A DNA stretch of 58,941 nt, taken from contig DASPGX010000015.1 in assembly GCA_035620375.1 (NCBI GenBank), forward strand, positions 1 through 58,941. The letters run 5' to 3'. The notes below the pieces were generated by a model that ran no database searches, was not told the DNA's origin, and was given only the letters and a program-made list of their open reading frames with translations. The position numbers were made by a program, and so were the translations under genes. Origin of the DNA: Minisyncoccota bacterium (lineage in GTDB: Bacteria; Patescibacteriota; Minisyncoccia; 2-02-FULL-40-12; GWA2-44-9). The number at the start of each line of letters is the position of its first letter. Position 1 is the stretch's first letter. Below, in pieces: positions 159 to 58,941 of the stretch.

Positions 159-716
159 CTAACGCTTGGACCAGCGAGGAGCTTTTCGTGCTTTCTTCAG
201 CCCATACTTCCGCCGTTCTTTCTTCCTCGGATCCCGCGTCAAATACCCCACCTTCTTCAATTTCTTCCTGAAATTCCCGTCAAAGCTCTCCAGCGCACGC
301 GCGATGCCGTGCCGGATGGCGTCGGCCTGTCCGGACGAGCCGCCGCCGGACACCTTCACGGTGACCTTGAAGCGGTGCAGGCTCTTGAGCTTGCGGAGCG
401 CGGATTCCACGACGGCGACCAGGTTCGCGTCGGTGAAGTACTCCTGGTAGTCCTTGCCGTTCACGGTCATGAGCGCGGAGTCCTCCTTGAGCTCGTCCCC
501 GCTCTTTCGGGTCATGAGGCGCACGCGTGCCACGGACCGCTTGCGGCGGCCGACGGCCTCAAAATATTTCTCCTTTGCGCCCGGAGCGAGCTCTTCGGGC
601 TCGTCCACGATTTCGGGGGTATCGTCGTCGTCATCCGCGGACGTGTCCGCAGCGCCGAACAGCACGTCCTGCGCGGGGTTGGTTTCCAGCTCCTGGTTGT
701 CGGTTGCTTTGGGCAT
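159..716 (-). CDS. rpsI: 30S ribosomal protein S9 with acidic N-terminal extension
   Basis: C-terminal GGGSSGQADAIRHGIARAL...YLTRDPRKKERRKYGLKKARKAPRWSKR is the S9 signature. Sits downstream of rplM. Confidence 0.95.
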   Translation of the reverse strand: MPKATDNQELETNPAQDVLFGAADTSADDDDDTPEIVDEPEELAPGAKEKYFEAVGRRKRSVARVRLMTRKSGDELKEDSALMTVNGKDYQEYFTDANLVAVVESALRKLKSLHRFKVTVKVSGGGSSGQADAIRHGIARALESFDGNFRKKLKKVGYLTRDPRKKERRKYGLKKARKAPRWSKR

Positions 717-4765: not shown

Positions 4766-4771
4766 AATATC

Positions 4772-4796
4772 TAACGGCTCACGATGTGAGCCGTTA
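4772..4796. repeat. Conserved palindrome H1 (AACGGCTCAC-GAT-GTGAGCCGTT)
   Basis: One of five copies with identical arms (also 11460, 38640, 48364, 54694). Confidence 0.75.
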
Positions 4797-4818
4797 GAGG
4801 AGAATCTGTGACGACAGA

Positions 4819-11420: not shown

Positions 11421-11459
11421 CGAACGACGCCCCCGGGGAACCGGGGGCTTTGCATTTTT

Positions 11460-11482
11460 AACGGCTCACGGCATGAGCCGTT
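11460..11482. repeat. Conserved palindrome H2 (AACGGCTCA-CGGCA-TGAGCCGTT)
   Basis: Same arms as H1 and H3-H5. Lies between convergent htrA-like and VWA genes. The only copy with no adjacent structured RNA. Confidence 0.75.
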
Positions 11483-11560
11483 GACCCCCCCCGATAAACA
11501 AAAGCCCCGACCTTTTGGGTCGGGGCGTGCGACGCCGGAAGGGGCAAAGCCTCTTCCGGA

Positions 11561-38056: not shown

Positions 38057-38335
38057 CTACTTAACTGCCTCTTTGAGCACCTTCGACGGCGTGAAGCGGA
38101 GCTTCTTGGACGCCGGAATCTGGATAACCTCACCGGTCCGCGGGTTGCGTCCCTCACGGGCCTTACGGTCAGCCACTTTGAAGATACCGAGGCCGGTGAT
38201 GTTGATTTTCTCCCCCTTGCGCAAGAGGTTGGTCAACAGCTCCACGAAGGATTCCAGGTATTCTCCTGCATCCTTCTTGGACAGGCCGGTCTTCTCGGCA
38301 ACCATCTGGATGAGCTGGGTTTTCTTTACAGTCAC
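38057..38335 (-). CDS. hup: HU-family DNA-binding protein
   Basis: KTQLIQMVAEKTGLSKKDA...GFGIFKV-like GLGIFKVADRKAREGRNPRTGEVIQIPASKKLRFTPSK. GTG start. Confidence 0.92.
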   Translation of the reverse strand: MTVKKTQLIQMVAEKTGLSKKDAGEYLESFVELLTNLLRKGEKINITGLGIFKVADRKAREGRNPRTGEVIQIPASKKLRFTPSKVLKEAVK

Positions 38336-38372
38336 GACATAACACCCCCTTCCTTACTTTCAAAACCTCCGT

Positions 38373-38515
38373 GTTTGGCCCGGGACGAGTCATTTGTCCC
38401 GTCGGCCAAACCGTACCGGCTTGCCCGATTTCGGCGTTACCGCCTCCGGTCCTCCTTCGCCGTACGTCAGTACGACTCAGTTCGGTCCTCGGCGTTGCCT
38501 TGAACTCGGCCAAGC
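38373..38515 (-). ncRNA. Copy F of the structured small-RNA family, directly upstream of hup on the same strand
   Basis: P1 GCUUGGCCGA/UCGGGCAAGC (one mismatch), GUUCAAGGC, GAGGACCGAACUGAG, CGUAC-UGAC-GUACG, GAAGGAGGACCGGAGG, GUAACGCCGAAAUCGGG, then a long hairpin at 38373-38411. Confidence 0.5.
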
Positions 38516-38639
38516 ACGAAGGTTTTGCTTTATGAATTATCCGCAGAATTACTAGCGTTTTCTACGGACAAAATAAAGTATTGGCGTTTTATGCGGGTAT
38601 TTCAAGGCCGATGTGGAAAACCCCTTTGTTTACGCCATA

Positions 38640-38670
38640 TTTTAACGGCTCACCCCATGAGCCGTTAAAA
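38640..38670. repeat. Conserved palindrome H3 (TTTTAACGGCTCA-CCCCA-TGAGCCGTTAAAA)
   Basis: Lies in the AT-rich divergent spacer between copies F and B. Arms identical to H1, H2, H4 and H5. Confidence 0.75.
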
Positions 38671-38692
38671 TCCCCCTTGGTGCTCCTATATT
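38664..38692 (+). promoter_or_regulatory. Promoter candidate for RNA copy B, with -35 inside the palindrome arm
   Basis: GTTAAA-N17-TATATT. The predicted start, ~7 nt downstream, coincides with the first base of the copy-B closing helix (38699). Confidence 0.4.
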
Positions 38693-38698
38693 TCCGTG

Positions 38699-38814
38699 GA
38701 CCGCCGTATTCGGATGGGATTCAAGGCATCGGCGAGGACCGAACCGAGCCGTACTGACGTACGGTAAGGGAGGACCGGAGCCGATAACGCAGAAGACCGC
38801 CGGATACGGCGGTC
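38699..38814 (+). ncRNA. Copy B of the structured small-RNA family, tail-to-tail with rny
   Basis: P1 GACCGCCGUAUUCGG/CCGGAUACGGCGGUC (15 bp, one G-U). AUUCAAGGC, GAGGACCGAACCGAG, CCGUAC-UGAC-GUACGG, AAGGGAGGACCGGAG, AUAACGCAGAA. The 3' arm can alternatively form the local hairpin GACCGCCG-GAUA-CGGCGGUC. Confidence 0.5.
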
Positions 38815-38868
38815 CCTGAGCGGAGCGCGAGCCGCGCACGCGCTCTCGCGCGTGCGAGCGCTCCGCGG

Positions 38869-40386
38869 CTACCGAGCAAACTCTATAGCACGGGTTTCGC
38901 GAATGACGTTGACCTTAATCTCCCCCGGATACTGCATCTCCGCCTCCACCTTGCCCGCGATATCACGGGCAAGCTGCAGCGCGGCGAGGTCGTCAATCTT
39001 GGCAGGCGTGACAAACACGCGCAATTCACGGCCGGCCTGGATGGCGTAGGACTTCTCCACGCCCTCAAAGGAGCCGGCGATGCGTTCCAGGTCCTCCAGT
39101 CGCTTGAGGTAAATCTCCACGGTGTCGCGCCGGGCTCCCGGACGGGCCGCGGAGATGGCGTCGGCCGCCTGCACGATGCGGCTCTCCAGCGTGGAATACG
39201 GGAATTCTTCGTGATGGCTTTCCATCGCCCGGATGACCCGCTCGTCCATGCCGAATTTCGCCAGAATCTTGCGGCCGATTTCCACGTGCGTACCCTGCAC
39301 CTCGTGGTCCACCGCCTTGCCGATGTCGTGGAACAGTGCGCCCTTCTTGGCGATTGCGACATCGGCTCCCAGTTCGCCCGCGAGCATGCCCGCGACATGG
39401 GCCATCTCGATGGAGTGCAGGAGCACGTTCTGCCCGAAACTCGTCCGGTACGCGAGACGGCCGAGGAGGTAGACGAGTTTGGGGTCCACCATGCCCACGC
39501 CGCACTCAAGGAGCGCCGCCTCTCCGGCCTCCTTAATCTTTCCGTTGATGTCCTCGCGCGCCTTTTCCACCGCCTCCTCGATTTTCGCCGGATGGATGCG
39601 TCCGTCAGCCACCAGCTGATCGATGGCGAGCTTTGCAATCTGCCTGCGTACGGGGTCAAAACCGCTGACCACGAGCGTTCCGGGCGTGTCGTCGATGATG
39701 ATATCCACGCCGGTCAGCCGTTCGATGGTTTTGATGTTCCGCCCTTCCTTGCCGATAATCTTCCCTTTCAGGTCGTCCGACGGGATGTTCACGATGGTCG
39801 TCGTCGCATCGGCGATATGCGAACCCGCGTAGCGCTGGACCGCCATGGTGAAAATCTCGCGCGCCTTGCGGTCGATTTCCTCCCGGTTTCCGGTCTCCAG
39901 CTTCTTCAGGTGCCGGTAGAGATCCTCGCGGTATTCCTCCTGCACCTTCGCGAAAATCTGCTCCTTGGCCTCATCCCGCGACAGGCCGCCAATTTTCTCC
40001 AGGGCATCCAGCTGGCGGTGCCGGATGTCGCCCAATTCGGTGCGGACGGTCTCGGCCTCCTGCATTTTGGACGACAACGACTCCTTTTCCTTTCCAAGCT
40101 CCTTCTCCTTTTCGCCGAGGTCAGACTCCTTCTTCCCCAGAAGGTTTTCTATGCGGTCCAGCTGCTTGCGTCGCTCATTCTCCTCCTTCTTCGCCTCATC
40201 AAGCACTTTCAGCGCCTTGTTGTTCGCCTCCAGGACGATTTCCTGGGCTTTAGCCTTGGAATCGCTCAACAGGCCCTGTGCGCGGGCCTCCGCTTCAGCG
40301 ACCTTCTTGCCGGCCGCGAACTTACGTACGAAGAATCCTACGAGAAACCCGACGACGACTGCGGGAACGATGAACGTAATGGGCAT
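38869..40386 (-). CDS. rny: Ribonuclease Y
   Basis: N-terminal TM, coiled coil, KH domain (GKIIGKEGRNIKTIERLTGVDIIIDD), HD domain (HDIGKAVDHE). Confidence 0.92.
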   Translation of the reverse strand: MPITFIVPAVVVGFLVGFFVRKFAAGKKVAEAEARAQGLLSDSKAKAQEIVLEANNKALKVLDEAKKEENERRKQLDRIENLLGKKESDLGEKEKELGKEKESLSSKMQEAETVRTELGDIRHRQLDALEKIGGLSRDEAKEQIFAKVQEEYREDLYRHLKKLETGNREEIDRKAREIFTMAVQRYAGSHIADATTTIVNIPSDDLKGKIIGKEGRNIKTIERLTGVDIIIDDTPGTLVVSGFDPVRRQIAKLAIDQLVADGRIHPAKIEEAVEKAREDINGKIKEAGEAALLECGVGMVDPKLVYLLGRLAYRTSFGQNVLLHSIEMAHVAGMLAGELGADVAIAKKGALFHDIGKAVDHEVQGTHVEIGRKILAKFGMDERVIRAMESHHEEFPYSTLESRIVQAADAISAARPGARRDTVEIYLKRLEDLERIAGSFEGVEKSYAIQAGRELRVFVTPAKIDDLAALQLARDIAGKVEAEMQYPGEIKVNVIRETRAIEFAR

Positions 40387-40566
40387 ATGATGCCGAAAGC
40401 GCCCGAGCCAGAACGCCGTGACTCACGGTTCCGTTTGTGTTCAAGAGTTTCATGCCTGAGAGCGGCTCTACGCGGGCGCAGGTTAATACAAAATTCAATG
40501 CCCCATCATACCACCTACATTTGCGTCTGTCTATACGTACGCATGGAGCCACGCATAACGCCTCCC

Positions 40567-40718
40567 GCTTGCCCGAGTTCAAGGCGCAAGCGAGCACCGG
40601 AGCGAGCCGTACTCAATGTACGGTAAGCGAGGAGCACAGCGGCAACGCAGAAATCGGGCAAGCCCATGCGGCAGAAAAACGGAAACCCCGCCCTTTTTCT
40701 GGCGGGGCCGTTTTTCTG
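40567..40718 (+). ncRNA. Copy C of the structured small-RNA family, tail-to-tail with mnmA
   Basis: Perfect P1 GCUUGCCCGA/UCGGGCAAGC. GUUCAAGGC, GAGCACCGGAGCGAG, CCGUAC-UCAAU-GUACGG, GCGAGGAGCACAGCGG, CAACGCAGAAAUCGGG. Bidirectional terminator 40672-40718 (CAGAAAAACGG..CCCCGCC-loop-GGCGGGG..CCGUUUUUCUG). Confidence 0.55.
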
Positions 40719-40726
40719 CGGGAGCG

Positions 40727-41782
40727 TTATACCAGGATGCCGCCGCCGATGACACACCCGTTCCGGTACACGACGGCCGACTGCCCCGCCGCGACGGCAC
40801 GCACGGGCCTGAGGAACCGGATTATGCCGCGCGAGGAGATAACCGCGGGACGCGCGGGAGAACGGTAGCGGACGGCCACGGAAACCCGCTCGCGGGGTCC
40901 GGGCTTACCCGCGAACCAGCGTGTTCCCGTAATCCGCGCCCGGCTGCACGCAAGATCCTCCGCCGGACCGACAATGAGCTCATTGCGCCGGATATCCTTA
41001 CCGGTCACGTACCACGGCCCGGTACCCCCGGGAAGTCCGAGGCCATGACGCTGGCCGACGGTGTAGTATGAAACGCCGTCATGGCCGCCGAGGACGGTAC
41101 CCTCGCGGTCCCTGATGAGGCCGCGCCGCGAACGGATGCGCCGCGCAAGAAACGACTTGAAGTCCATTTCACCCACGAAACATACTCCCTGGCTGTCCTT
41201 TTTGCCGGCAACGGGGAGGTTGCGCTTTTTCGCATACCCGCGGACCTCGGATTTGAGCATTCCCCCGACGGGAAACAGCACTCGCTCAAGCGCAGCCTGC
41301 GGTACACCCCACAGAAAATACGTCTGGTCCTTGTTCCGGTCCTTCGCCCTGGCAAGCACGGCCTTCCGGCTCCCACCCGCGGACCGGATGCGCCGGATGC
41401 GCGCATAGTGCCCCGTGGCGATGGCATCCGCGCCGCCGGCGAGCGCACGCCGGAGAAACAGGCCGAACTTGATGTGCCGGTTGCACTCCACGTCCGGATT
41501 CGGCGTGATTCCGGCACGGTAGCCCGCAACCATGGGACGGGCCACCTTCGCCCCGTACGCCGAAGAAAAATCCCAGGTCAGCAGCGGGATGCCGAGCGCG
41601 GTTGCGACCCTGAGCGCGTCCGTCCGGTCCTGATGCCACTGACAGGCGACGCCCGCGGGCTGCCACGGCTTCATGAAAACGCCGACGACGCGAAAACCCC
41701 GCTCCGTGAGCAGGGCGGCCGCGGCGGACGAATCAACGCCGCCGGACATCGCGACATAGACGGTTTTCCGGCGCGCATTCAT
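40727..41782 (-). CDS. mnmA: tRNA 2-thiouridine(34) synthase MnmA
   Basis: PP-loop VAMSGGVDSS, catalytic Cys context. Typical length. Confidence 0.92.
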   Translation of the reverse strand: MNARRKTVYVAMSGGVDSSAAAALLTERGFRVVGVFMKPWQPAGVACQWHQDRTDALRVATALGIPLLTWDFSSAYGAKVARPMVAGYRAGITPNPDVECNRHIKFGLFLRRALAGGADAIATGHYARIRRIRSAGGSRKAVLARAKDRNKDQTYFLWGVPQAALERVLFPVGGMLKSEVRGYAKKRNLPVAGKKDSQGVCFVGEMDFKSFLARRIRSRRGLIRDREGTVLGGHDGVSYYTVGQRHGLGLPGGTGPWYVTGKDIRRNELIVGPAEDLACSRARITGTRWFAGKPGPRERVSVAVRYRSPARPAVISSRGIIRFLRPVRAVAAGQSAVVYRNGCVIGGGILV

Positions 41783-48347: not shown

Positions 48348-48363
48348 CACCTCGCCACCGCGT

Positions 48364-48386
48364 TAACGGCTCACCCAATGAGCCGT
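48364..48386. repeat. Conserved palindrome H4 (AACGGCTCA-CCCAA-TGAGCCGTT)
   Basis: Identical arms. Lies 30 nt upstream of RNA copy D. Confidence 0.75.
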
Positions 48387-48415
48387 TGATTTTAGGCAAC
48401 TACAACCACGGATTG

Positions 48416-48616
48416 CGTGATTTCGTCCGAGACCGAGGCGCAGAGCGAGCACCGGAGTGAGCCGTACTCATGCTACGGCGAACGAGGAGCGGAGCGGTAA
48501 CGACGGGTATCGGGCGAAATCACCAATCCCGAGCGGTCCAGGCGAAGGTTCACGCCGAGGAACTTCGGCGGGAATCGCCTCCGAAAGCCCGCCCAACAGA
48601 GGGCGGGCGGAGCTTT
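48416..48616 (+). ncRNA. Copy D of the structured small-RNA family (with extra 45-nt hairpin module), tail-to-tail with the dsbA-like gene
   Basis: P1 GUGAUUUCGUCCGA/UCGGGCGAAAUCAC (14 bp, one G-U). GAGCACCGGAGUGAG, CCGUA-loop-UACGG, GAGGAGCGGAGCGG, GUAACGACGGGUAUCGGG. Module at 48537-48581. Terminator hairpin GCCCGCCC-AACAGA-GGGCGGGC. Confidence 0.5.
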
Positions 48617-48633: not shown

Positions 48634-49365
48634 CTATAACTCAGCATCGATCGCTTGCTGGAATGCCGAGAACGGCTGCGCCCCCACCAGCAACTTCCCG
48701 TTCACGAAGAATGACGGCGTTCCGCTGACGCCCGCCGCCTGGCCGGCCTCAAAGTCCGCGTCGACCTCGTCACCGTACTTCTCGGAATCAAGGCATTGGT
48801 TGAACTGTCCCGTGTTCAGGCCGATTTCCGCCGCCCAGCGCTTGAGCTCGGCATTGCCGTACGTAACGGTACCGTTCCCCTGCTTGGCCTGTTCCAGGAA
48901 CATTTTGTCGTGGTACTCCCAGAAGCGGCCCTGCTCGTTCGCGCACTCGGCGGCAAGGGCCGACGGACGTGCGGCGTCGTGGAACTGCAGCGGGAAGTCG
49001 CGGTACACAAGCTTCGCCTTGCCCGTATCGATGTATTCGGACTTGATAAGGGAATACGTGTCGTTGAAGAAGCTCCGGCAGAACGGACATTGGAAGTCGC
49101 TGAATTCCACGATGGTCACCGGAGCGTCGGGATTGCCGATGACCGGGTCGTTGTCGGTGAGGTCGCCGTCGAACACCACCTGCTCCTCCTGCGGGAGGTC
49201 GCCCAGCGCCGCGGTGCCGGTCCCGGGGCCGCCGACGGAGCCGCCCGTGTACAGAATCGAGCCCGCCACCATCAGGCCGGCGGCGATGATTGAAACCGGT
49301 ACCGAGAACGACATGTCGTTCCAGAGAGACTTCCCTACGCTTCCGGCGGATGAATTCAGTTCCAT
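48634..49365 (-). CDS. DsbA-family thiol:disulfide oxidoreductase, membrane-anchored
   Basis: FSDFQCPFC (CxxC) thioredoxin fold. N-terminal TM. Confidence 0.85.
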   Translation of the reverse strand: MELNSSAGSVGKSLWNDMSFSVPVSIIAAGLMVAGSILYTGGSVGGPGTGTAALGDLPQEEQVVFDGDLTDNDPVIGNPDAPVTIVEFSDFQCPFCRSFFNDTYSLIKSEYIDTGKAKLVYRDFPLQFHDAARPSALAAECANEQGRFWEYHDKMFLEQAKQGNGTVTYGNAELKRWAAEIGLNTGQFNQCLDSEKYGDEVDADFEAGQAAGVSGTPSFFVNGKLLVGAQPFSAFQQAIDAEL

Positions 49366-53489: not shown

Positions 53490-53894
53490 TTACTGCGCAT
53501 CGCCGATATTCAGCGGCGCGACTTCCACAATGCGGTGCTCGGTCGGATTGTACAGGACCGCCTTGCGTGCGTTGTTGTAGATGAGGACTTTGTCCCCGAC
53601 CTTGGCCTTGGCGAAGAACGGCTGGTCCGCGAGCTGGCTGGGGTCGGCAACGGTCGCGATGACCGGCTCCTCGTCGTCGGGAAGCACGATAAGCTTGGAC
53701 ACCTGGGCGACAAGCTCCTGCACCTCCTGCCGTGCGGCGCGGTCGGGGTCGCCCTTGAGCGAACGGGCTTCGTACCAGAAATACCCCGCTACTCCGGCAA
53801 CGACAATGATACCCGCGGCCAGACCGAGCACCAGGCGCTTTCCCCCGGGCAGTGCGATGCCCCCGTTTTGCGGTGTTTCTTCCATGATAGGCAC
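53490..53894 (-). CDS. Hypothetical single-pass membrane protein (134 aa)
   Basis: TM LVLGLAAGIIVVAGVAGYFWY followed by a small soluble domain. Confidence 0.55.
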   Translation of the reverse strand: MPIMEETPQNGGIALPGGKRLVLGLAAGIIVVAGVAGYFWYEARSLKGDPDRAARQEVQELVAQVSKLIVLPDDEEPVIATVADPSQLADQPFFAKAKVGDKVLIYNNARKAVLYNPTEHRIVEVAPLNIGDAQ

Positions 53895-53985
53895 AGCATA
53901 TCGGCCGTGCGGACGACTTCAAGCCCTGCCCTGTGTATTACTCCCGTGTACGCACCCCGCATCCTTCTATATAATATACTCTGTT

Positions 53986-54450
53986 ATGGAAACCGGTCCG
54001 AATACCCGTCTTACGGGGTTCACACTTTTGGAAATCCTTCTGGTTGTTGCCGCTATCTCCATTCTCGCGGGCATTGTCATCGTCGCCATCAACCCCGGAG
54101 AACAGCTCGGACAGACCCGAAATGCGCAGCGGAGAGCCGACGTACGCACTATCAGTGACGCCATCGCGCAGTATTACCTCAAGGAGGGCACGTATCCAAC
54201 CACGTTTGAAACGGGTACAACGTGCGGAAACGCCGACGAGCAGGAAATCTGCAAAACCGGCGCGTCCCCCTGCTATACGGATTTGTCGGAACTGACAACG
54301 AACGCCACGTATCTTGTGTCCATCCCGGTGGACCCTCTGGCCGAGAGCACGGGCAGCGGGTACTACGTGGTGCGGAACACGACAACGAACCGGGTGATTG
54401 TGTGTGCGCCGCTTGCAGAACTCTCTGAGACCATCAGCGTAACCCGCTAG
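53986..54450 (+). CDS. Type IV pilin-like protein (prepilin N-terminal cleavage/methylation domain)
   Basis: LTG-FTLLEILLVVAAISILAGIVIVAI class III signal with Glu5. Cys pairs in the C-terminal domain. Confidence 0.8.
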   Translation: METGPNTRLTGFTLLEILLVVAAISILAGIVIVAINPGEQLGQTRNAQRRADVRTISDAIAQYYLKEGTYPTTFETGTTCGNADEQEICKTGASPCYTDLSELTTNATYLVSIPVDPLAESTGSGYYVVRNTTTNRVIVCAPLAELSETISVTR

Positions 54451-54461
54451 GAACCTTCACG

Positions 54462-54657
54462 CAGAAAAACGGCCCCGCCTGAATAGGGCGGGGTTTCCGT
54501 TTTTCTGCCGCGGGGGCTTGCCCGATTTCTGCGTTGCTCCTTCCGGTCCTCCCTCGCCGTACATTAGTACGCCTCGGTTCGGTCCTCAGTCGGAGGCGAT
54601 TCCCGTGGAAGTTCCTCCACGTGAACCTTCGCCTGGCCGCCTTGAACTCAGGCAAGC
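54462..54657 (-). ncRNA. Copy E of the structured small-RNA family (45-nt module inserted inside the P1 domain), tail-to-tail with the pilin gene
   Basis: P1 GCUUGCCUGA/UCGGGCAAGC (one G-U). The ends and terminator (54462-54507) are nearly identical to copy C. The core is of the GAGGACCG type. Module at 54592-54636. Confidence 0.55.
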
Positions 54658-54693
54658 GTGAAGGCTCTAAATCGCGGAGGACACCCCATTTTT

Positions 54694-54716
54694 AACGGCT
54701 CATGAGATGAGCCGTT
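54694..54716. repeat. Conserved palindrome H5 (AACGGCTCAT-GAG-ATGAGCCGTT, with A/T extensions)
   Basis: Identical arms. Lies 37 nt upstream of RNA copy E on the minus strand. Confidence 0.75.
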
Positions 54717-54728
54717 AAAAATAGAGCG

Positions 54729-57700
54729 CTATTCGGAGGGTTCCTGAGGAGGAGGTTCCGGCGCGGGTTCGGGGGCGGGTTCAGGAGCCGGCTCCGGTTC
54801 GGGTTCCGGCTCGGGTTCGGGCTGCGACTCCGGTTCAGATACAGGTTCGGACTCAGGCTCGGGTCCCGGCTCGGAGGCGGGCGGGGGTTCTGTCGATTCT
54901 TCGGGAGCCGGCTCAACTGACTCCTCCGGCGCCGGGGAGGGTTCGCCTTGCGGCTCCGGTGCGGGCGGGGGCTCAGGCGTCGCGACAGGAGGCATGAAGA
55001 GCTTGGGCTCGCGGATCGCAAGAGCGGTCCAGCTGAACGGGACGTCCACGTCCTGTTCAGCGTTGATGCGGATAGTGAAGCCGTACTCGTCCACGCGCGT
55101 CACGATATACGCCAGCCCACCGTCCAGGAGCGCGTCTTCAAGCTCATCGCTCGCGCTCGCCGTGGAGAGGGTTACCGTCGCATTCACGACCGGCCGGTAC
55201 AGGTATTCCCGTTCAAATTCCACCGTAACTTCGGTCTGACCGGCGGGAATGAGCGCGAACCCTCCCGTGTCGCTGGTGAAGTACGGCCGGCCGAAGAATT
55301 CCACATCATCTAATAGACGGATGAACTCGCCCGTCGTGGAAATCTCGCCCACCGCAAGTCCGCCGTTCGCCGTGACCAGCGAGTGGTAAACCAGCGACCC
55401 GCTCGCCGGCGCGGATACGGAGGCCATGGATGACTCAATCACCGTTATCCGGTCAGTGAGGGTGGACAGCGCCGATTCAGAGGCGCTGGCGCGTGAGCGC
55501 AAGCTCTCAAACGCGGCCGCAAGCGAGACGTCGCTCTCCTGCAGTTGCGCCACATTGACCTCCAGCGCGGCCATGCGCTCGGTATATTGCGCTCCCGCAT
55601 CGGCGTAGCTGACGTTCACCGCGACCGCCACTGAACCTTCACCGATACCCGAATAATCCTCAAGCGCACGCCCGATGACCAGGCCGTCAGACGTCGCCGC
55701 CTGCGCGACGCCGGGCTCGTCGGATACCGACAGGTAATCGCCGGCGCGGACCGTGCCGCTCACGCGCACCGCCGTACGCCCGCCGATGGCAACCGGCAGG
55801 CCCGCTTCGCCGTTCTCCAACGACACGGCCCCGTATCCCGCGATGATGCCGACGACGCCAAACGGGTCGCCCGGACGGGACGGCCTGACGACTCCCGCTT
55901 CGGGGTCATAACTGACCAGCGTTCCCTTTGCCATCTCATAATCCTCAACCGGATACACCTGCGTGATGGCGCTGTTGACCGCGAGCCCCTCCGGCGCCTG
56001 CCGGACGACAGCCTGCGCGAGGTTCGGATCGTCCGTGTTATCGTCCTGCCACCACCGGTAGAAGTCCACATCCAAGCTGTTCGCCACGGACCCGGCCTGT
56101 CCCTGCCACATCATCTGCGTCGCGAGTTGCGAGGACGGAATGTTCGTCGTGCTGGAACCGCAGAATACCGGCACGACGCCGTCGGACGCGTTGTTGTCCA
56201 CGTAGAAGTCCACCCGGCTCGGACTGCGGACCTCAATGATGAACACCGCGAAGTTCGTCGTGCTGATGGTGTTCGCCGTTGCCGGACAGGTGACGGTCGT
56301 CTGGGTGCCGCCGCTGCGCGTGATACCGGTCCACTCCGTCCCCAGCGTCCCCGCGTTGTTGTTGGAGAATCCGATGAAGTTCGTCGGCGCAACCAGCGCG
56401 CCGTCGGTCGCGTCGCCCGCGCCGACATAGATGCCGTACAGGTTTGAAATCACGGTCGGACGTACCTTCGCCGTGATGAGCGGCAAGCGGGAGGCCGCAA
56501 GAATGAGGCGGGGGTCGTTCGTCGCCTCGTCCATCATCGTCATACAGCCGTTGCTCGCACCGCCGTTGTTGGTAATGCGGAGGAAACCGTTAATCTGGTC
56601 GTTCACCGATTCAAAGATACAGCTGTTTCCGCTACCGCTCTCATACGTACCCCACGCGCTCCAGTCGCCGATACCCGTGTTGGATGCGCCGGCTTTGTCC
56701 GACGTGGAGGTCGTGAACGCCTTGTTGAATTCCTCGGCCATCATGGAGTTGCGGGACACGTACGCGCCGCCGACGACGATGGAGCCGAACTGCGACGAAC
56801 CGGCGCTGAAGCTCAGCAACGGATTGTTGTTTACATCAATGAAGGTCAAGCTTCCGCTCGCCGGAATCTGGATATAGTTGGTCTTCCCCGTGAACTGAAT
56901 GCCGTAATCCCAGCCATTCCCGATACGGATTGCGGATTCCCCGACATTGGATTTACTGGCGATGCCGGAGATATCCAGCCCGAAGAACGACTTGCTGGCG
57001 CCTCCGCCCGTGTTGCCCGACGTCGCGACCAGCCGGAGAATGGAATTCGTGATGGCCGTGGTACCGCTGTCACCCTGTCCGAAGCTGATTTCCAGCCCAT
57101 CCACGCCGCTCGTCGTCGCTGCGAGCGTCCGGCTGGAGATGCGGGCGAAGTCAAGTGCCGCGCTCGTGGCGTTCACGAGCAGGCGCGAGAGGGACGCCGT
57201 GCCGGCGACCTCGAACGAGCCGGCGACCGACGCGCCCGCGGAGAAGAAGTTCAGGCCGGTCCAGGTGTTTGATGTGGAACGCGAGGCGGGTCCGTTCGTC
57301 CAATCCAGACGGACGAACGACTGTGAAGCCGTGAAGCCGATATTGAAGTGTCCGGGCTCAAACGAGAGCGAACCGATGTGGATGAACGCCCCCGAGTCGA
57401 TGCCTTCCCTCACGGAGAGCCCCTTGCCCAGGCCGTCCGCGCCGCTGCCTCCCGCTGCCGTTCCGCAGGAGAACTGCCCCGTGGACGCGTTGTACTGCAG
57501 GAACTGGCTCGCACCGTTGCAGGTCGTCAGGCCCGCGCCGTATATCGCCGATGCGGACGCGTAGCCGGAGGCCTCAAAACCGCCCGACAGCGAGGCGTTC
57601 GTGATGACGAACAGCGTGGGAATGGAGAGCGTCGGGTCGCCGGCCGAACCGGTGCCGTTGGTCACCGTAATCTGGTTCGTCGTCCCCGTGAGCGTCCGCT

Positions 57701-58941
57701 GGGAGAACGTGTTGGAGCCTGTCACCGCAAGTAAGCCGGCCGTGGAGGTGATTCCCGACAGGGCCGAAAGGGTCTGGTCCACGACGAACACGGGGTCCCC
57801 GGCGATGCCCGCGGGGTTGGTGACCTGCAGTCCCGCTCCCGACGTCGTCAGAGAGCGCTGCGCCCACGTGTCAGTGCCCGTCCGCGCGGCGAATCCCGTG
57901 GAACCGAGGCCCTCCAGAGCGGCCAGGTCGTTTGCCAGGGCGAGCGTCGGGTCGCCGGACACGCCGTCGCCGTTCGTGACCGTGATGCCCGCCGCAGGGC
58001 CGGTGATGGTGCGCGTTGCGAACGTCTGGGCGCCCGTCCGCGCGATGATGCCCGTCGTGGACACCACGGCGACGTCGCCCGACGCGTCCGGAAGCGTGAA
58101 CGTGCGGTCAGCGGTGGGATCCGCAAGCGTCAGCAGCGCCTCATTCGCATCCGCCGAGGAGCCCTCAAAGAGCACGCCCGTTGAGCCGAAGACGCTCTGA
58201 CCCGAGGTCAGCGCCGGGTCGCCCGCAAGCGTCGCGGTGTACGGGAACGCCAGCGTTACCGCGCCGTTGGCGCCGCCGTCGGTCACGGAAATCTGATGTG
58301 CCGTACCGGTCAACGCGCGCTCCAGCGAGAGCGAAGCCGTGTTTCCGATGGTAACGAACGGAATATTGGAGTTGGTCGTATCAGTCGCATTCAGCGTATT
58401 GCCGCTCCATGCAAGGTTCGTTCCCGCGGTGATTCTTGTGGACGGGGTGTCGTAGAACGACTCCCAATTAGATATAGAAGCGGTGAGGGGAATACTGAAT
58501 CCGGCGGCGACGGCGAGATTGTATGCGCCGTTTGCTCCTCCGTCGGTGAATTCCAGCGGGGCGGTCGCCGTAAGGGAGCGCTCAAAGGCGAGCGACGCGG
58601 TGTTGCCGACCGAGAGGAAGGCGATGTTGGAATTCGTGGTATCGGGGTCGGCGACGCACGAGAATGTGCCGTTCACGTTCCACTGCAGTTTCTGGACCGA
58701 CGTACATGTCGCCAGTCCGCTCCCGAACGTCGCCGAAGCGGAAGCATTGCCCGCCACCTCCAGGCTTCCTGATAACGAGGCGTTCGAGCTCAACAGGGTC
58801 AGGCCGCCGAAGGTGAGCGTGTTGCCGTTCAGATCCGTGGTGGTGTTCGCGTCCAGGGTCAGGGCGTTCGCGATTTCATCCCAGTCCAGGGAGTTGGATG
58901 CGGGGCGGAAGTTGGCGGGGTTGATGGTGGTGCCGTTGATG
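54729..58941 (-). CDS. Giant repetitive surface protein, 5'-partial (reading frame open to the window edge), with Pro/Glu-rich C-terminal tail
   Basis: The frame stays open upstream of the tracked start (…[46 protein letters not shown]…). Repeated ~45-aa T/G/N-rich modules (TNSNI.F..GNTASL..ER.LT; ...TVTNG.G..GDPTL). Tail is [17 protein letters not shown]. Confidence 0.8.

Follow-up and report, generated by a model that had tools for sequence, protein, structure and literature searches.

A family of rod-shaped structured RNAs with a near-invariant purine-rich apical domain in Patescibacteria

Introduction

Bacterial SRP (4.5S) RNA is a rod-like hairpin of ∼100 to 115 nt that combines a variable, covarying basal helix with an apical domain that is conserved, consists of purine-rich internal loops, and docks a protein. 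It is single-copy, and its domain IV carries a GNRA tetraloop with defined symmetric and asymmetric loops. T-box leaders, like other multicopy RNAs that share one trans factor, have a short invariant core and variable, covarying helices; they form the 5' leaders of aminoacyl-tRNA-related genes and contain a terminator/antiterminator switch. The Ro-associated Y RNAs, which like other small RNP scaffold RNAs are protein-binding scaffolds, have ∼100 nt, ends that form a long stem, and several paralogues per genome; in these RNAs, proteins bind a conserved site of the basal stem, and rsr is the neighboring gene. Repeats of the Correia/NEMIS, ERIC, RUP, and REP types (∼100 to 150 bp, hairpin-forming, multicopy, located at gene ends and sometimes containing promoters or terminators) carry terminal inverted repeats that are conserved, are flanked by target duplications, and do not range beyond a genus or family. 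GadY-type cis-antisense RNAs are encoded opposite the intercistronic or 3' region of an operon, as single, locus-specific genes without a family-wide conserved structured core. Box C/D-type RNAs, including the tigRNAs of CPR and phages, form hairpins with twice-repeated short motifs on tandem G-A pairs, and TIGR systems are frequent in CPR (PMC12045711).

Here, we describe a family of rod-shaped RNAs that has six copies in a 58,941-nt stretch of DNA from a Minisyncoccota bacterium (the window, in what follows). In contrast to SRP RNA, these rods have a variable apical loop, occur in a few to tens of copies per genome, and gave no match to the Rfam SRP models at an E value of ≤10. Unlike T-boxes, with which they share no Rfam match, 76 of 122 copies are oriented toward a convergent gene, and in 41 cases the copy is antisense to its neighbors on either side. 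Their conserved site is apical, their basal helix is variable, and no protein gene was found to recur beside them apart from housekeeping operon genes, whereas Y RNAs show the opposite arrangement. Correia-type repeats have conserved ends, but here the termini vary and covary around a conserved center, and the spread covers several CPR classes. Compared with tigRNAs, the rods contain no RUGAUGA/CUGA box and no unpaired guide, the position of the "spacer" being a paired 2-bp step; they form no tandem array, and an unsystematic look noticed no adjacent Nop-domain (Tas) gene. Full-text literature searches returned no description of such an RNA, and the family is previously undescribed. An invariant core kept in many copies, as in T-boxes, implies a common ligand. 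We lean, by a little, toward reading each of the six elements as a gene for a Patescibacteria (CPR)-specific small structured RNA, which would be transcribed either independently or together with stable RNAs and would dock a shared partner through its apical domain.

Results

Six copies of one rod in the window. The sequence-only reading of the window had proposed six structured RNAs, named A to F, at given places and strands. We built a covariance model, R1, from 64 foreign sequences and window copies B, C, D, and F (that is, mostly from homologues in other genomes) and searched both strands of the window with filters off. R1 returned exactly these six copies, with E values of 1e-12 to 1e-25, the next best match having an E value of 0.16. 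Copy A (1 to 92, + strand; R1 match at 2 to 85, 49.9 bits, E = 1.5e-12) has lost the 5' strand of its closing helix, P1, to the window edge. Copy B (38697 to 38816, + strand) is a full-length rod with the best R1 score (91.3 bits, E = 1.4e-25) and a folding energy of -68.7 kcal/mol (z = -9.9). Copy C (40567 to 40663, + strand) is a 97-nt rod (60.6 bits, E = 6.6e-16, fold z = -5.7), and copy D occupies 48410 to 48529 on the + strand (R1 match at 48417 to 48523, 64.7 bits, E = 3.5e-17, fold z = -4.7). On the - strand, copy F spans 38408 to 38526 in the R1 match, where P1 is extended, with a core rod at 38420 to 38515 (67.9 bits, E = 3.4e-18, fold z = -4.4), and copy E spans 54513 to 54657 (R1 match at 54513 to 54615, 51.8 bits, E = 4e-13). 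R1 passed over a 45-nt insert in copy E, the whole 145 nt of which fold at -63 kcal/mol (z = -4.0). The z scores of the complete copies against shuffles thus run from -4.0 to -9.9, and none of 200 shuffles equaled any copy.

The extents first given for A, C, D, E, and F took in separate 3' hairpins. These are terminators in three copies (A, C, and E), a downstream hairpin in F, and, in D, a 45-nt module together with a hairpin. The family unit proper has about 97 to 121 nt. P1 of copy D is longer than had been noted, as GGAUU at 48410 to 48414 pairs with AAUCC at 48525 to 48529.

The 45-nt hairpin module (CCAGGCGAAGGUUCAC-stem-GAGGAACUUC-stem-GGGAAUCGCCUCCGA) lies directly 3' of copy D (48538 to 48585, + strand). 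In copy E (54589 to 54636), the alignment shows it as an insert that makes an extra arm between P2 and P3. It is a member of a separate, widespread family with more than 120 metagenome occurrences, and an Rfam search for its host RNA gave chance miRNA matches only. We rejected the idea that rod and module make one composite element, as only 3 rod matches were found in the 670 kb around the first 100 module sites. Five copies of a palindrome, TTAACGGCTCA-N5-TGAGCCGTTAA, also occur in the window: at 4771 to 4797, at 11458 to 11484, at 38642 to 38668, at 48363 to 48389 (5' of copy D), and at 54692 to 54718 (5' of copy E). The palindrome is found 5' of the element in another locus (L025) as well.

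Covarying stems and a near-invariant apical domain. All copies form a single long, irregular hairpin (∼100 to 125 nt), with variable, strongly covarying stems P1 to P3 and a near-invariant purine-rich apical domain (consensus GAGnACC-GRA-NN-GA-nCCGUAC-loop-GUACGGn-GA-N'N'-GAGGA). The basal two-thirds consist of P1, a 2-bp step, P2, and P3, whose sequences drift freely with compensatory changes. In the apical third, a CCGUAC/GUACGG helix lies under a loop that varies in sequence and in length (4 to 6 nt or more), and two G/A-rich internal loops surround the 2-bp NN/N'N' step, which covaries (GC/GC, AU/AU, GU/AC, CC/GG, and others); CC/GG pairs and an A-A mismatch follow below these loops. P1 pairs as originally described, namely, GCUUGCCCGA/UCGGGCAAGC in copy C, GUGAUUUCGUCCGA/UCGGGCGAAAUCAC in D, and GACCGCCGUAUUCGG/CCGGAUACGGCGGUC in B, with one U-G pair in E and one mismatch in F; one P1 sequence is common to copies A, C, E, and F. 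The segments initially taken for free strands, "GUUCAAGGC" and the "purine-rich single strands," are in fact short helices between G/A-rich internal loops (UUC/GAA, P2, P3, and the covarying 2-bp step).

RNAalifold run on a MAFFT alignment recovered the inner helices only, because outer stems of unequal length were misaligned. For this reason, we projected the minimum-free-energy structure of one sequence on the alignment and counted pairs. In the structure-blind MAFFT alignment, 83% of the cells pair, compared with 28 to 48% in slid controls, and 461 cells carry double changes, compared with 112 to 249. In the R1-fitted alignment, 91% of the cells pair (35 to 45% in slid controls) and double changes occur at 36 of the 39 pairs. 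The compensatory changes first seen in the closing helix are therefore borne out on both alignments, and the covariation was upheld once more homologues had been added. All of the outermost 15 pairs vary with double changes, and no outer column is conserved at 90% or above. One copy (L030, 2375 to 2496) has compensatory changes even at near-invariant pairs. The fold accommodates additional hairpins at fixed positions, much as functional RNAs do in their expansion segments.

No membership in known RNA classes. The absence of a recognizable class, noted from the letters of the window, agrees with searches against Rfam 15 (4227 models), with ARAGORN, and with the literature. At the gathering threshold, Rfam reported only 4 tRNAs in the window; no known family matched a rod even below threshold, as region 38300 to 40800 gave at E ≤ 10 a single chance miRNA match located elsewhere and none of the matches in 25 related loci (18 + 7) overlapped an element. 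ARAGORN found 4 ordinary tRNAs at other positions of the window and no tmRNA.

Individual candidates were also set aside. A small SRP RNA is contradicted by the lack of an RF00169 match, the variable apical loop, and the 6 copies in 59 kb. A T-loop or tRNA mimic in "GUUCAAGG" is not compatible with the pairing of its UUC with GAA, the same position being a covarying 7-bp helix in AT-rich versions. For a box C/D RNA or tigRNA, the boxes are missing from the consensus, NN/N'N' is paired, and the copies are dispersed. A riboswitch or other 5' leader does not fit the opposite-strand downstream neighbor of 76 of 122 copies, nor the neighbors themselves, which are unrelated housekeeping genes. The apical core bears a resemblance to the sarcin-ricin loop of 23S rRNA (GAGGACCGGAG), but its pairing context differs and the likeness is probably a coincidence.

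Distribution across the CPR. A scan of 185,579 species genomes with the core pattern gave 93 stretches from 41 assemblies, almost all labeled Patescibacteria/CPR and including Gracilibacteria, Saccharibacteria, Peribacteria, Paceibacterota, and other lineages. R1 matched 136 times in the 93 loci plus the window, 130 of these matches being outside the window and from the 41 other assemblies. The proposed paralogous family of structured RNAs thus holds in the window and much more strongly in the 130 further copies. Conservation of the core spans CPR classes, reaching from Gracilibacteria through Saccharibacteria to Paceibacteria, and genomes contain from a few to tens of copies. The nearest relatives of the window elements are in two loci labeled Candidatus Yanofskybacteria SJ643 (L048 and L089), the latter with a relative of copy B at 87% identity and a compensatory change in P1. 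At the DNA level, the window matched other loci in the elements alone, plus 46 nt after copy B.

Gene context and transcription signals. Pfam confirmed most of the neighboring genes named in the sequence-only reading, namely, rpsI (159 to 716, - strand), hup, encoding HU (38057 to 38335, - strand), rny, encoding RNase Y (38869 to 40386, - strand), mnmA (40727 to 41782, - strand), and a DsbA-like gene (48634 to 49365, - strand); the putative "pilin" gene (53581 to 54450, + strand) had no Pfam match. Copy F precedes hup by 73 nt and shares its strand, copy B is tail-to-tail with rny, copy C is divergent from rny and convergent with mnmA, and copies D and E are convergent with the DsbA-like gene and with the gene at 53581 to 54450, respectively.

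Copies B and F have candidate sigma-70-like promoters. That of B (38665 to 38692, + strand; TTAAAA-16-TATATT) has a predicted start at ∼38699, the 5' end of copy B, and its -35 region overlaps the palindrome at 38642 to 38668. That of F (38536 to 38564, - strand; TAGAAA-17-GATAAT), with a predicted start at ∼38529, just 5' of F, has 9 of 12 matches; the region contains 7 sites, compared with 1.1 expected. The scan found no such promoter for copies C, D, and E, and upstream of 124 copies neither the position-specific information content nor a TANNNT profile exceeded its reverse-complement control.

As for the bidirectional terminators previously suggested after copies A, C, and E, the scan found those of C and E on both strands and that of A in part. 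The terminator shared by C and mnmA (40671 to 40719) has sites at 40686 to 40707 (+) and 40709 to 40684 (-), and the one shared by E and the gene at 53581 to 54450 (54461 to 54508) has sites at 54493 to 54473 (-) and 54471 to 54495 (+). Between copy A and rpsI, an A-tract/hairpin/U-tract (GUAGAAAAGGG...CCCUUUUCUAC, 99 to 144) gave a scan site on the rpsI (-) strand only (136 to 109), the U-tract on the RNA strand being read by eye. The gap from copy B to the rny stop codon contains a second, GC-rich hairpin without a U-tract (38819 to 38868). This hairpin is conserved in L089 and L091, again behind B-type copies, and the blastn match of the copy B region to L089 extends to 38860.

Placement at gene ends and a possible role in cis. 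We evaluated the placement of the copies beyond the window with crude longest-ORF gene calls and a heuristic choice of genetic code. With these calls, 41 copies are antisense to both flanking genes, so that they cannot belong to either mRNA, 22 are sense in codirectional spacers, and 24 lie between divergent genes. In 35 of 84 clean cases, the 3' end is within 10 nt of a neighbor, which is on the opposite strand in 28 (convergent gene or tRNA 3' ends, mostly a convergent stop codon at 0 to 4 nt) and on the same strand in 7 (for example, tRNAs). The 5' side abuts a neighbor in only 12 of 84, and a spacer of 25 to 60 nt is found on the 5' side in 26 of 84, whereas the 3' side has one in 5. Three genes, secY (5 genomes), rpsI (3 genomes), and rny (2 genomes), repeatedly have a copy at their 3' end, and they do so in distant classes, with the copy convergent in every case. 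A promoter would have little room in the secY-adk spacers and in several Gracilibacteria, where the distance from the element to the following start codon is only ∼20 to 50 nt. Six copies lie 4 to 9 nt 5' of same-strand tRNAs. In L016, where the element is preceded by a tRNA at 24 nt and followed by another at 5 nt, no room is left for a promoter. Copies of L013 and L033 are located just 5' of 23S rRNA.

This placement could reflect a local role instead of one in trans. The element would then act where it lies as operon punctuation. It could be a cis-encoded antisense RNA whose pairing with the opposite-strand mRNA, in an intercistronic or 3' untranslated part, directs the processing or stability of that mRNA (compare GadY and gadX-gadW), or an insulator that halts antisense or read-through transcription where highly expressed operons end. 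The apical domain would recruit a shared helper, for example, an RNase or chaperone. The convergent 3' ends, the excess of antisense over sense copies (41 to 22), the recurrence at secY, rpsI, and rny, and the terminators that copies A, C, and E share with the convergent gene are in line with such a role. However, perfect complementarity would let an antisense RNA work without any conserved fold of its own, and here fold and core are under strong selection. Moreover, the copies in tRNA arrays and rRNA spacers are sense and face no opposite-strand mRNA, and the 24 copies between divergent genes have no gene end to act on. The placement itself may be passive, because compact genomes have intergenic space mainly at operon ends. 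We consider a role in cis rather unlikely and keep to genes for a trans-acting RNA as our reading of the elements.

Copy number, retention, and the case for a selfish repeat. The density of the elements is uneven, with 6 copies in the 59-kb window compared with 3 in 670 kb of other CPR-like contigs. They abut tRNA genes at 2 to 9 nt in either orientation, and one tRNA-Arg lies between an inverted pair of elements. Such features, together with the multicopy, intergenic occurrence in both orientations, the P1 sequence common to copies A, C, E, and F (as in recent duplicates), and the 45-nt module nested within E but outside D, would fit a nonautonomous repeat of the MITE, REP, or Correia type that has spread into "safe havens" between genes, for example, at gene ends and beside tRNAs, with the help of an enzyme recognizing the conserved hairpin core. 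Yet the ends, which are conserved where transposases recognize terminal repeats, are the least conserved part of the rods and covary; conserved terminal inverted repeats were not found, and we saw by eye no direct repeats or target duplications flanking the window copies; the initial description had named such duplications as the mark of inert MITE insertions. An REP/BIME with its RAYT, in which palindromes of 20 to 40 nt with a conserved 5' GTAG flank an IS200-like gene, is further contradicted by a unit of ∼120 nt without a GTAG head. Among 146 flanking proteins, examined by clustering and by eye, with ten scanned against Pfam, we recognized no transposase, integrase, or reverse transcriptase. 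The core pattern had 0 matches in 2.9 million viral contigs, which also speaks against a phage origin. Orthologous copies are kept while their stems drop to 58 to 68% identity between flanks that are 84% identical, and the structure is maintained as the sequence diverges; all 7 orthologous pairs retain the copy, in a sample of loci fetched through the element and hence occupied from the start. Finally, the core is conserved across CPR classes, and we know of no bacterial repeat family conserved nearly as deeply. We regard a selfish origin as quite improbable; should the rods nevertheless prove to be a selfish repeat, no other known from bacteria would come close to it in depth of conservation.

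Folding strand. The strand originally assigned from three G-U pairs in P1 is supported family-wide, with a G-U:A-C ratio of 248:105 overall and of 81:24 in the copies that are antisense to both neighboring genes; of 133 copies, 127 fold more stably on the modeled strand. In the core, purines face purines on both strands, which fits RNA G-A pairs and not a symmetric double-stranded DNA site. Covariation and G-T tolerance alone cannot tell RNA from single-stranded DNA, and the invariant helix CGTAC/GTACG is palindromic, so that a DNA structure folding on one strand during replication (an attC-like recombination site, a hairpin of the IS200/IS605 or RAYT type, or a priming site) has to be weighed. 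We judge it highly improbable. The folding strand is mostly antisense to the flanking genes (41:22), which for genes co-oriented with replication would make it, partly by inference, the leading-strand template, which is not exposed, and the orientations in the window are mixed (four + and two -). The promoters and terminators of the window fit transcription, the sense position directly 5' of tRNAs fits cotranscription, and by eye we recognized no tyrosine recombinase or Y1 transposase among the neighboring proteins.

Equally far-fetched, despite the location at gene ends and the 5'-strand A-run and 3'-strand U-run in P1 of AT-rich versions, is that the rod itself is an elaborate terminator: the scan puts a separate canonical terminator after, and not inside, each of the rods of A, C, and E, most copies have no U-tract after P1 and the helix beside the internal U-run is weak, a terminator 4 to 9 nt ahead of a same-strand tRNA, where some copies lie, would prevent that tRNA from being made, and the rods keep an invariant core across lineages, which terminators are not known to do across phyla.

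Discussion

If the rods are genes for small structured RNAs, as we are somewhat inclined to believe, the basal two-thirds (P1, the 2-bp step, P2, and P3) would serve only as a stable scaffold. The apical domain, with its tandem G-A type noncanonical pairs, would be where one shared partner docks. In our model, this partner is most likely a protein conserved in the CPR, and binding it would turn every copy into the same ribonucleoprotein. Clustering of the 146 flanking proteins revealed no candidate for this partner, and no family recurs beside the copies except housekeeping operon genes. The RNA would be transcribed from its own promoter, as predicted for copies B and F, with a 3' end at P1 or at the following bidirectional terminator (A, C, and E). 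In other lineages, it may be made within tRNA or rRNA precursors and freed by their end processing. The data show the family, its fold and folding strand, its phyletic spread, and its genomic placement; transcription, binding of the partner, and action in trans we infer.

CPR bacteria (Patescibacteria) represent a large share of bacterial diversity, with tiny genomes, unusual ribosomes, and almost no cultured members, and very little is known about their noncoding RNAs. Given its presence in many CPR lineages, the rod is probably an important RNA. Junk is unlikely in genomes under strong reduction, because the core is conserved across classes, is present in several to many copies, and is located in tRNA, rRNA, and ribosomal protein neighborhoods. 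The recurrent location next to these units hints at a link to translation or RNA processing. A bolder version, which we find unlikely but attractive, is a CPR-wide core RNA, the subunit of an abundant ribonucleoprotein tied to translation or RNA maturation and expressed from tRNA, rRNA, and ribosomal protein neighborhoods. If true, this RNA would have an evolutionary depth like that of SRP RNA or 6S RNA, but in Patescibacteria only, and in some lineages its genes would have multiplied into the tens. The rod would offer a simple sequence marker by which to recognize CPR genomes in metagenomic data, and its purine-rich apical domain is a candidate for a new RNA-protein recognition module. Identification of its partner could expose lineage-specific core cell biology.

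Six copies of one predicted rod-shaped RNA in the window

The six stretches picked out by the sequence-only reading (copies A to D on the + strand, E and F on the - strand) are all present in the window, which has 63% G+C over its 58,941 bases. Aligned to one another, they share 41 invariant columns. Each complete copy forms one long hairpin, and for no copy was any of 200 shuffled sequences as stable: the folding energies are -68.7 kcal/mol for B (z = -9.9 versus shuffled controls), -46.3 for C (z = -5.7), -49.3 for D (z = -4.7), -63 for E (z = -4.0), and -42.3 for F (z = -4.4). The three sequences of the closing helix (P1) pair as that reading had described, and R1, our covariance model of the family, recovers exactly the six copies on the strands assigned, with E values of 1e-12 to 1e-25 versus 0.16 for the best noncopy match in the window, all resting on a short calibration. 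Two points needed correction: what had been taken for single strands proved to be short helices (UUC/GAA, P2, P3, and a 2-bp step) lying between G/A-rich internal loops, and the intervals assigned to A, C, D, E, and F include, on their 3' side, separate hairpins that lie outside the family unit. Directly after copy B (38819 to 38868) lies a GC-rich hairpin of ~50 nt without a U-tract, which is kept after B-type copies in two other genomes (L089 and L091; L numbers denote stretches from elsewhere).

Covariation and folding strand

Homologues folded one by one gave the same rod, typically of 118 to 122 nt. We counted pairs on A2, an alignment by sequence only of 64 homologues and four window copies, onto which the minimum free energy structure of one sequence was projected; partners slid by 1 to 3 columns served as control. 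In A2, 83.1% of the cells were paired (28 to 48% when slid), both sides had changed in 461 cells (112 to 249), and the covariation score was 0.415 (at most 0.194). R1, with 121 positions and 39 pairs, was built from A2. In an alignment of 136 copies fitted to R1, and hence leaning towards the model, 91.4% of the cells were paired (35 to 45% when slid), double changes occurred at 36 of the 39 pairs, and the score reached 0.64 (at most 0.12). The double changes in both alignments bear out the compensatory change proposed earlier for the closing helix.

The consensus runs from a variable P1 (15 pairs) through the 2-bp step, P2, and P3 to a nearly invariant apical domain, gaG-n-ACC-G-g-A-NN-GA-n-cCGUAC-[loop of 4-6, variable]-GUACGg-n-GA-N'N'-GA-GG-A-a-n-C..A, in which NN and N'N' covary (GC/GC, AU/AU, GU/AC, CC/GG, CU/AG, and other combinations). 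Even 'invariant' pairs show compensatory change in a divergent copy (L030, 2375 to 2496), where CC/GG became UC/GA and CCGUAC/GUACGG became CUGUAC/GUACAG, with pairing kept. In the apical loops, G and A face G and A on both strands, the signature of putative tandem noncanonical G-A pairs in RNA; a symmetric double-stranded DNA site does not fit this arrangement.

The strand assigned earlier from G-U pairs was upheld by three counts. Paired columns held 248 G-U or U-G versus 105 A-C or C-A combinations, the latter at the level of other mismatches. The ratio was 81:24 in copies antisense to both neighboring genes, so the modeled strand folds even where the surrounding mRNAs lie opposite. Independently of any alignment, folding energy was lower on the modeled strand in 127 of 133 copies (mean, -44.2 versus -35.3 kcal/mol, a gap that comes partly from G-A mismatch bonuses). 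As we show here, the rod RNA is a real, deeply conserved family with one fold, on one strand.

Known families and distribution

In agreement with the claim that the elements belong to no known RNA class, Rfam 15 gave nothing for them in the window at gathering thresholds, in window positions 38300 to 40800 at E <= 10, or in 18 plus 7 related loci. ARAGORN detected only four ordinary tRNAs, which disposes of tRNA and tmRNA. The core strand GAGnACCGRA..G, which in the window lineage includes GUACG...GAGGACCGGAG (e.g., GAGGACCGGAG at 38772 to 38782), resembles the universal sarcin-ricin loop region of 23S rRNA (AGUACGAGAGGACCGGAGUG in E. coli); the pairing context is different, and the likeness is therefore probably a coincidence. 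Full-text literature searches on RNA motifs in CPR, Patescibacteria, Gracilibacteria, Saccharibacteria, or Parcubacteria turned up no description of the rod RNA. The family showed none of the defining features of TIGR-Tas, in which box C/D-like guide RNAs, encoded in tandem arrays, adjoin Nop-domain proteins (PMC12045711). In L052, positions 481 to 643 (+) score 32 bits, below the gathering threshold of 44, against the leader of ribosomal protein L10; a rod RNA copy directly adjoins this match on the other strand.

We scanned one genome per species (185,579 species) for the core pattern ACCGRANNGANNCGTAC-N3-7-TACGGNNANNGAGGA and obtained 93 stretches from 41 assemblies; gathering loci by an exact pattern underestimates diversity and distribution. 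R1 matched 136 copies over the window and these loci. The records are labeled Gracilibacteria, Saccharibacteria/Saccharimonadales, Peribacteria, Nomura-, Berkel-, Uhr-, and Yanofskybacteria, Paceibacterota, or 'Patescibacteria group'. Four records differ: two loci come from a single 'uncultured bacterium' bin, and two are MAGs labeled Gammaproteobacteria. The label of one such MAG (L009) is doubtful, because its tRNA-linked subtype is that of the Patescibacteria-labeled L016 and L020. No other phylum appeared among the core-pattern matches, and 2.9 million viral contigs held no copy; the family is apparently restricted to CPR. The closest relatives of the window copies are in Candidatus Yanofskybacteria SJ643, where L089 shares 87% identity with copy B plus the flank on its 3' side, and L048 matches copies A, E, and F. 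The window itself thus most probably derives from a Patescibacteria lineage of high G+C content.

In some Gracilibacteria subtypes, the rod has either an additional ~24-nt hairpin (GCCAUAGC.C.CCCUU.UGG.GUU) immediately 5' of the core or an enlarged P2 that contains an insert (L018, 4414 to 4534; L028, 4929 to 5051; L090, about 1900 to 2050; L030, 1301 to 1419; L072, 5849 to 5970). Found again in different genomes, these additions can be likened to expansion segments.

Promoters, terminators, and neighboring motifs

Pfam identified the genes with which copies A to D lie tail-to-tail, as proposed, namely rpsI (A), rny (B), mnmA (C), and a DsbA-like gene (D). Copy E faces a + strand ORF of 289 aa (53581 to 54450), read earlier as a pilin; neither this ORF nor the 1,354-aa ORF upstream of E (54729 to 58793, -) had a Pfam match at E <= 0.001. 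Copy F had been placed correctly upstream of hup; 73 nt separate the two. The common spacer of the divergent copies B and F contains sigma-70-like promoters with predicted starts at both RNA 5' ends (TTAAAA-16-TATATT, ending at 38692, +, for B; TAGAAA-17-GATAAT, ending at 38536, -, for F). Of the bidirectional terminators suggested for A, C, and E, those of C and E were scored on both strands; that of A was scored on the rpsI strand only, its RNA-strand U-tract being read by eye.

A 27-bp palindrome, TTAACGGCTCA-N5-TGAGCCGTTAA, whose arms keep their sequence instead of covarying, occurs five times in the window. Three copies lie 25 to 35 nt 5' of B (38642 to 38668, overlapping its predicted -35 box), D (48363 to 48389), and E (54692 to 54718), and two (4771 to 4797 and 11458 to 11484) between the terminators of convergent genes. 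It is also found 5' of the element in another genome (L025, about 1900 to 1930). The palindrome could serve as an operator for a protein or be a repeat in its own right.

The window also contains another structured motif, a hairpin of 45 nt with a covarying stem (CCAGGCGAAGGUUCAC-[3-4 bp]-GAGGAACUUC-[3-4 bp]-GGGAAUCGCCUCCGA), once 3' of copy D (48538 to 48585, +) and once as an insert inside copy E (54589 to 54636, -). Largely independent of the rod RNA and matching no Rfam family, this hairpin is present in more than 120 stretches of metagenome sequence among the matches listed (L095 to L214), mostly contigs of ~40% G+C. In many of these the hairpin forms an arm of a conserved noncoding unit that is larger (~140 nt) and closed by a 15-bp helix (GGAUAGCAAGCUUGU...ACAAGUUUGCUAUCC), as in L105 (13100 to 13240, -), with similar flanks in L095, L111, L113, L140, L151, L173, and others. 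Rfam gave only chance miRNA matches near this unit, which may be another unknown RNA.

Genomic placement and possible function

Placement across the family was counted from crude, heuristic ORF calls, for which the genetic code (11 or 25) was likewise chosen heuristically. Of 84 clean cases, 35 have a neighbor within 10 nt of the element's 3' end (28 on the opposite strand, at the 3' ends of convergent genes or tRNAs, and 7 on the same strand, e.g., tRNAs), while the 5' end abuts a neighbor in only 12 of 84; spacers of 25 to 60 nt number 26 on the 5' side versus 5 on the 3' side. Forty-one copies are antisense to both neighbors and 22 are sense. In one Patescibacteria group, ten copies lie 2 to 9 nt from tRNA genes, always touching with the 3' end, and six of them are followed directly by a tRNA on the same strand. 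In L016 (4386 to 5193), four copies occupy the spacers between arrayed tRNA genes, and the space is too small for promoters; a tRNA-Arg sits between two inverted copies, 4 nt from each (L009, 466 to 930); and in L013 and L033 the element is just 5' of the 23S rRNA on the same strand.

Across distant classes, copies recur at certain gene ends and are convergent in every case. A copy adjoins secY (before adk) in Nomurabacteria, two Paceibacterota, Yanofskybacteria, and Gracilibacteria; another gene with a copy at its end is rpsI, both in the window and in two Gracilibacteria; and rny has one in the window and in one Gracilibacterium. These recurrent positions would be accounted for by a local role at operon ends, in antisense-directed processing or insulation. 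We regard this main rival as rather unlikely, as it leaves unexplained both the selected fold and the sense copies in stable-RNA operons.

Seven of seven orthologous locus pairs, fetched via the element core, keep the copy, and all keep the fold, with copy identities from 96% (flanks, 79%) down to 58% (ribosomal protein flanks, 84%). Such retention, the variable ends, and the depth of conservation are at odds with an origin as a selfish repeat, which is improbable even though it would fit the copy-number swings, the placement at tRNA flanks, and the P1 common to A, C, E, and F. Clustering and reading of 146 flanking proteins, ten of them Pfam scanned, revealed no recognizable transposase, integrase, or reverse transcriptase. 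That the element acts as single-stranded DNA is very hard to credit, and so is a role as terminator.

On balance, we lean towards the copies being small RNA genes whose apical domain is read by a shared partner, most likely a protein. Small RNA genes are suggested because copies antisense to both neighbors cannot be parts of mRNAs, because the spacing on the 5' side and abutment on the 3' side fit a promoter-bearing gene without downstream signals of its own, because promoters and terminators are predicted in the window, and because other lineages embed the RNA in tRNA or rRNA transcription units, from which end-processing would release it. A shared partner is suggested by an invariant, sequence-specific apical helix with GA loops on a freely drifting scaffold that tolerates additional arms at fixed points, such as copy E's 45-nt module and the hairpins of 24 nt that L018, L028, and L090 contain.
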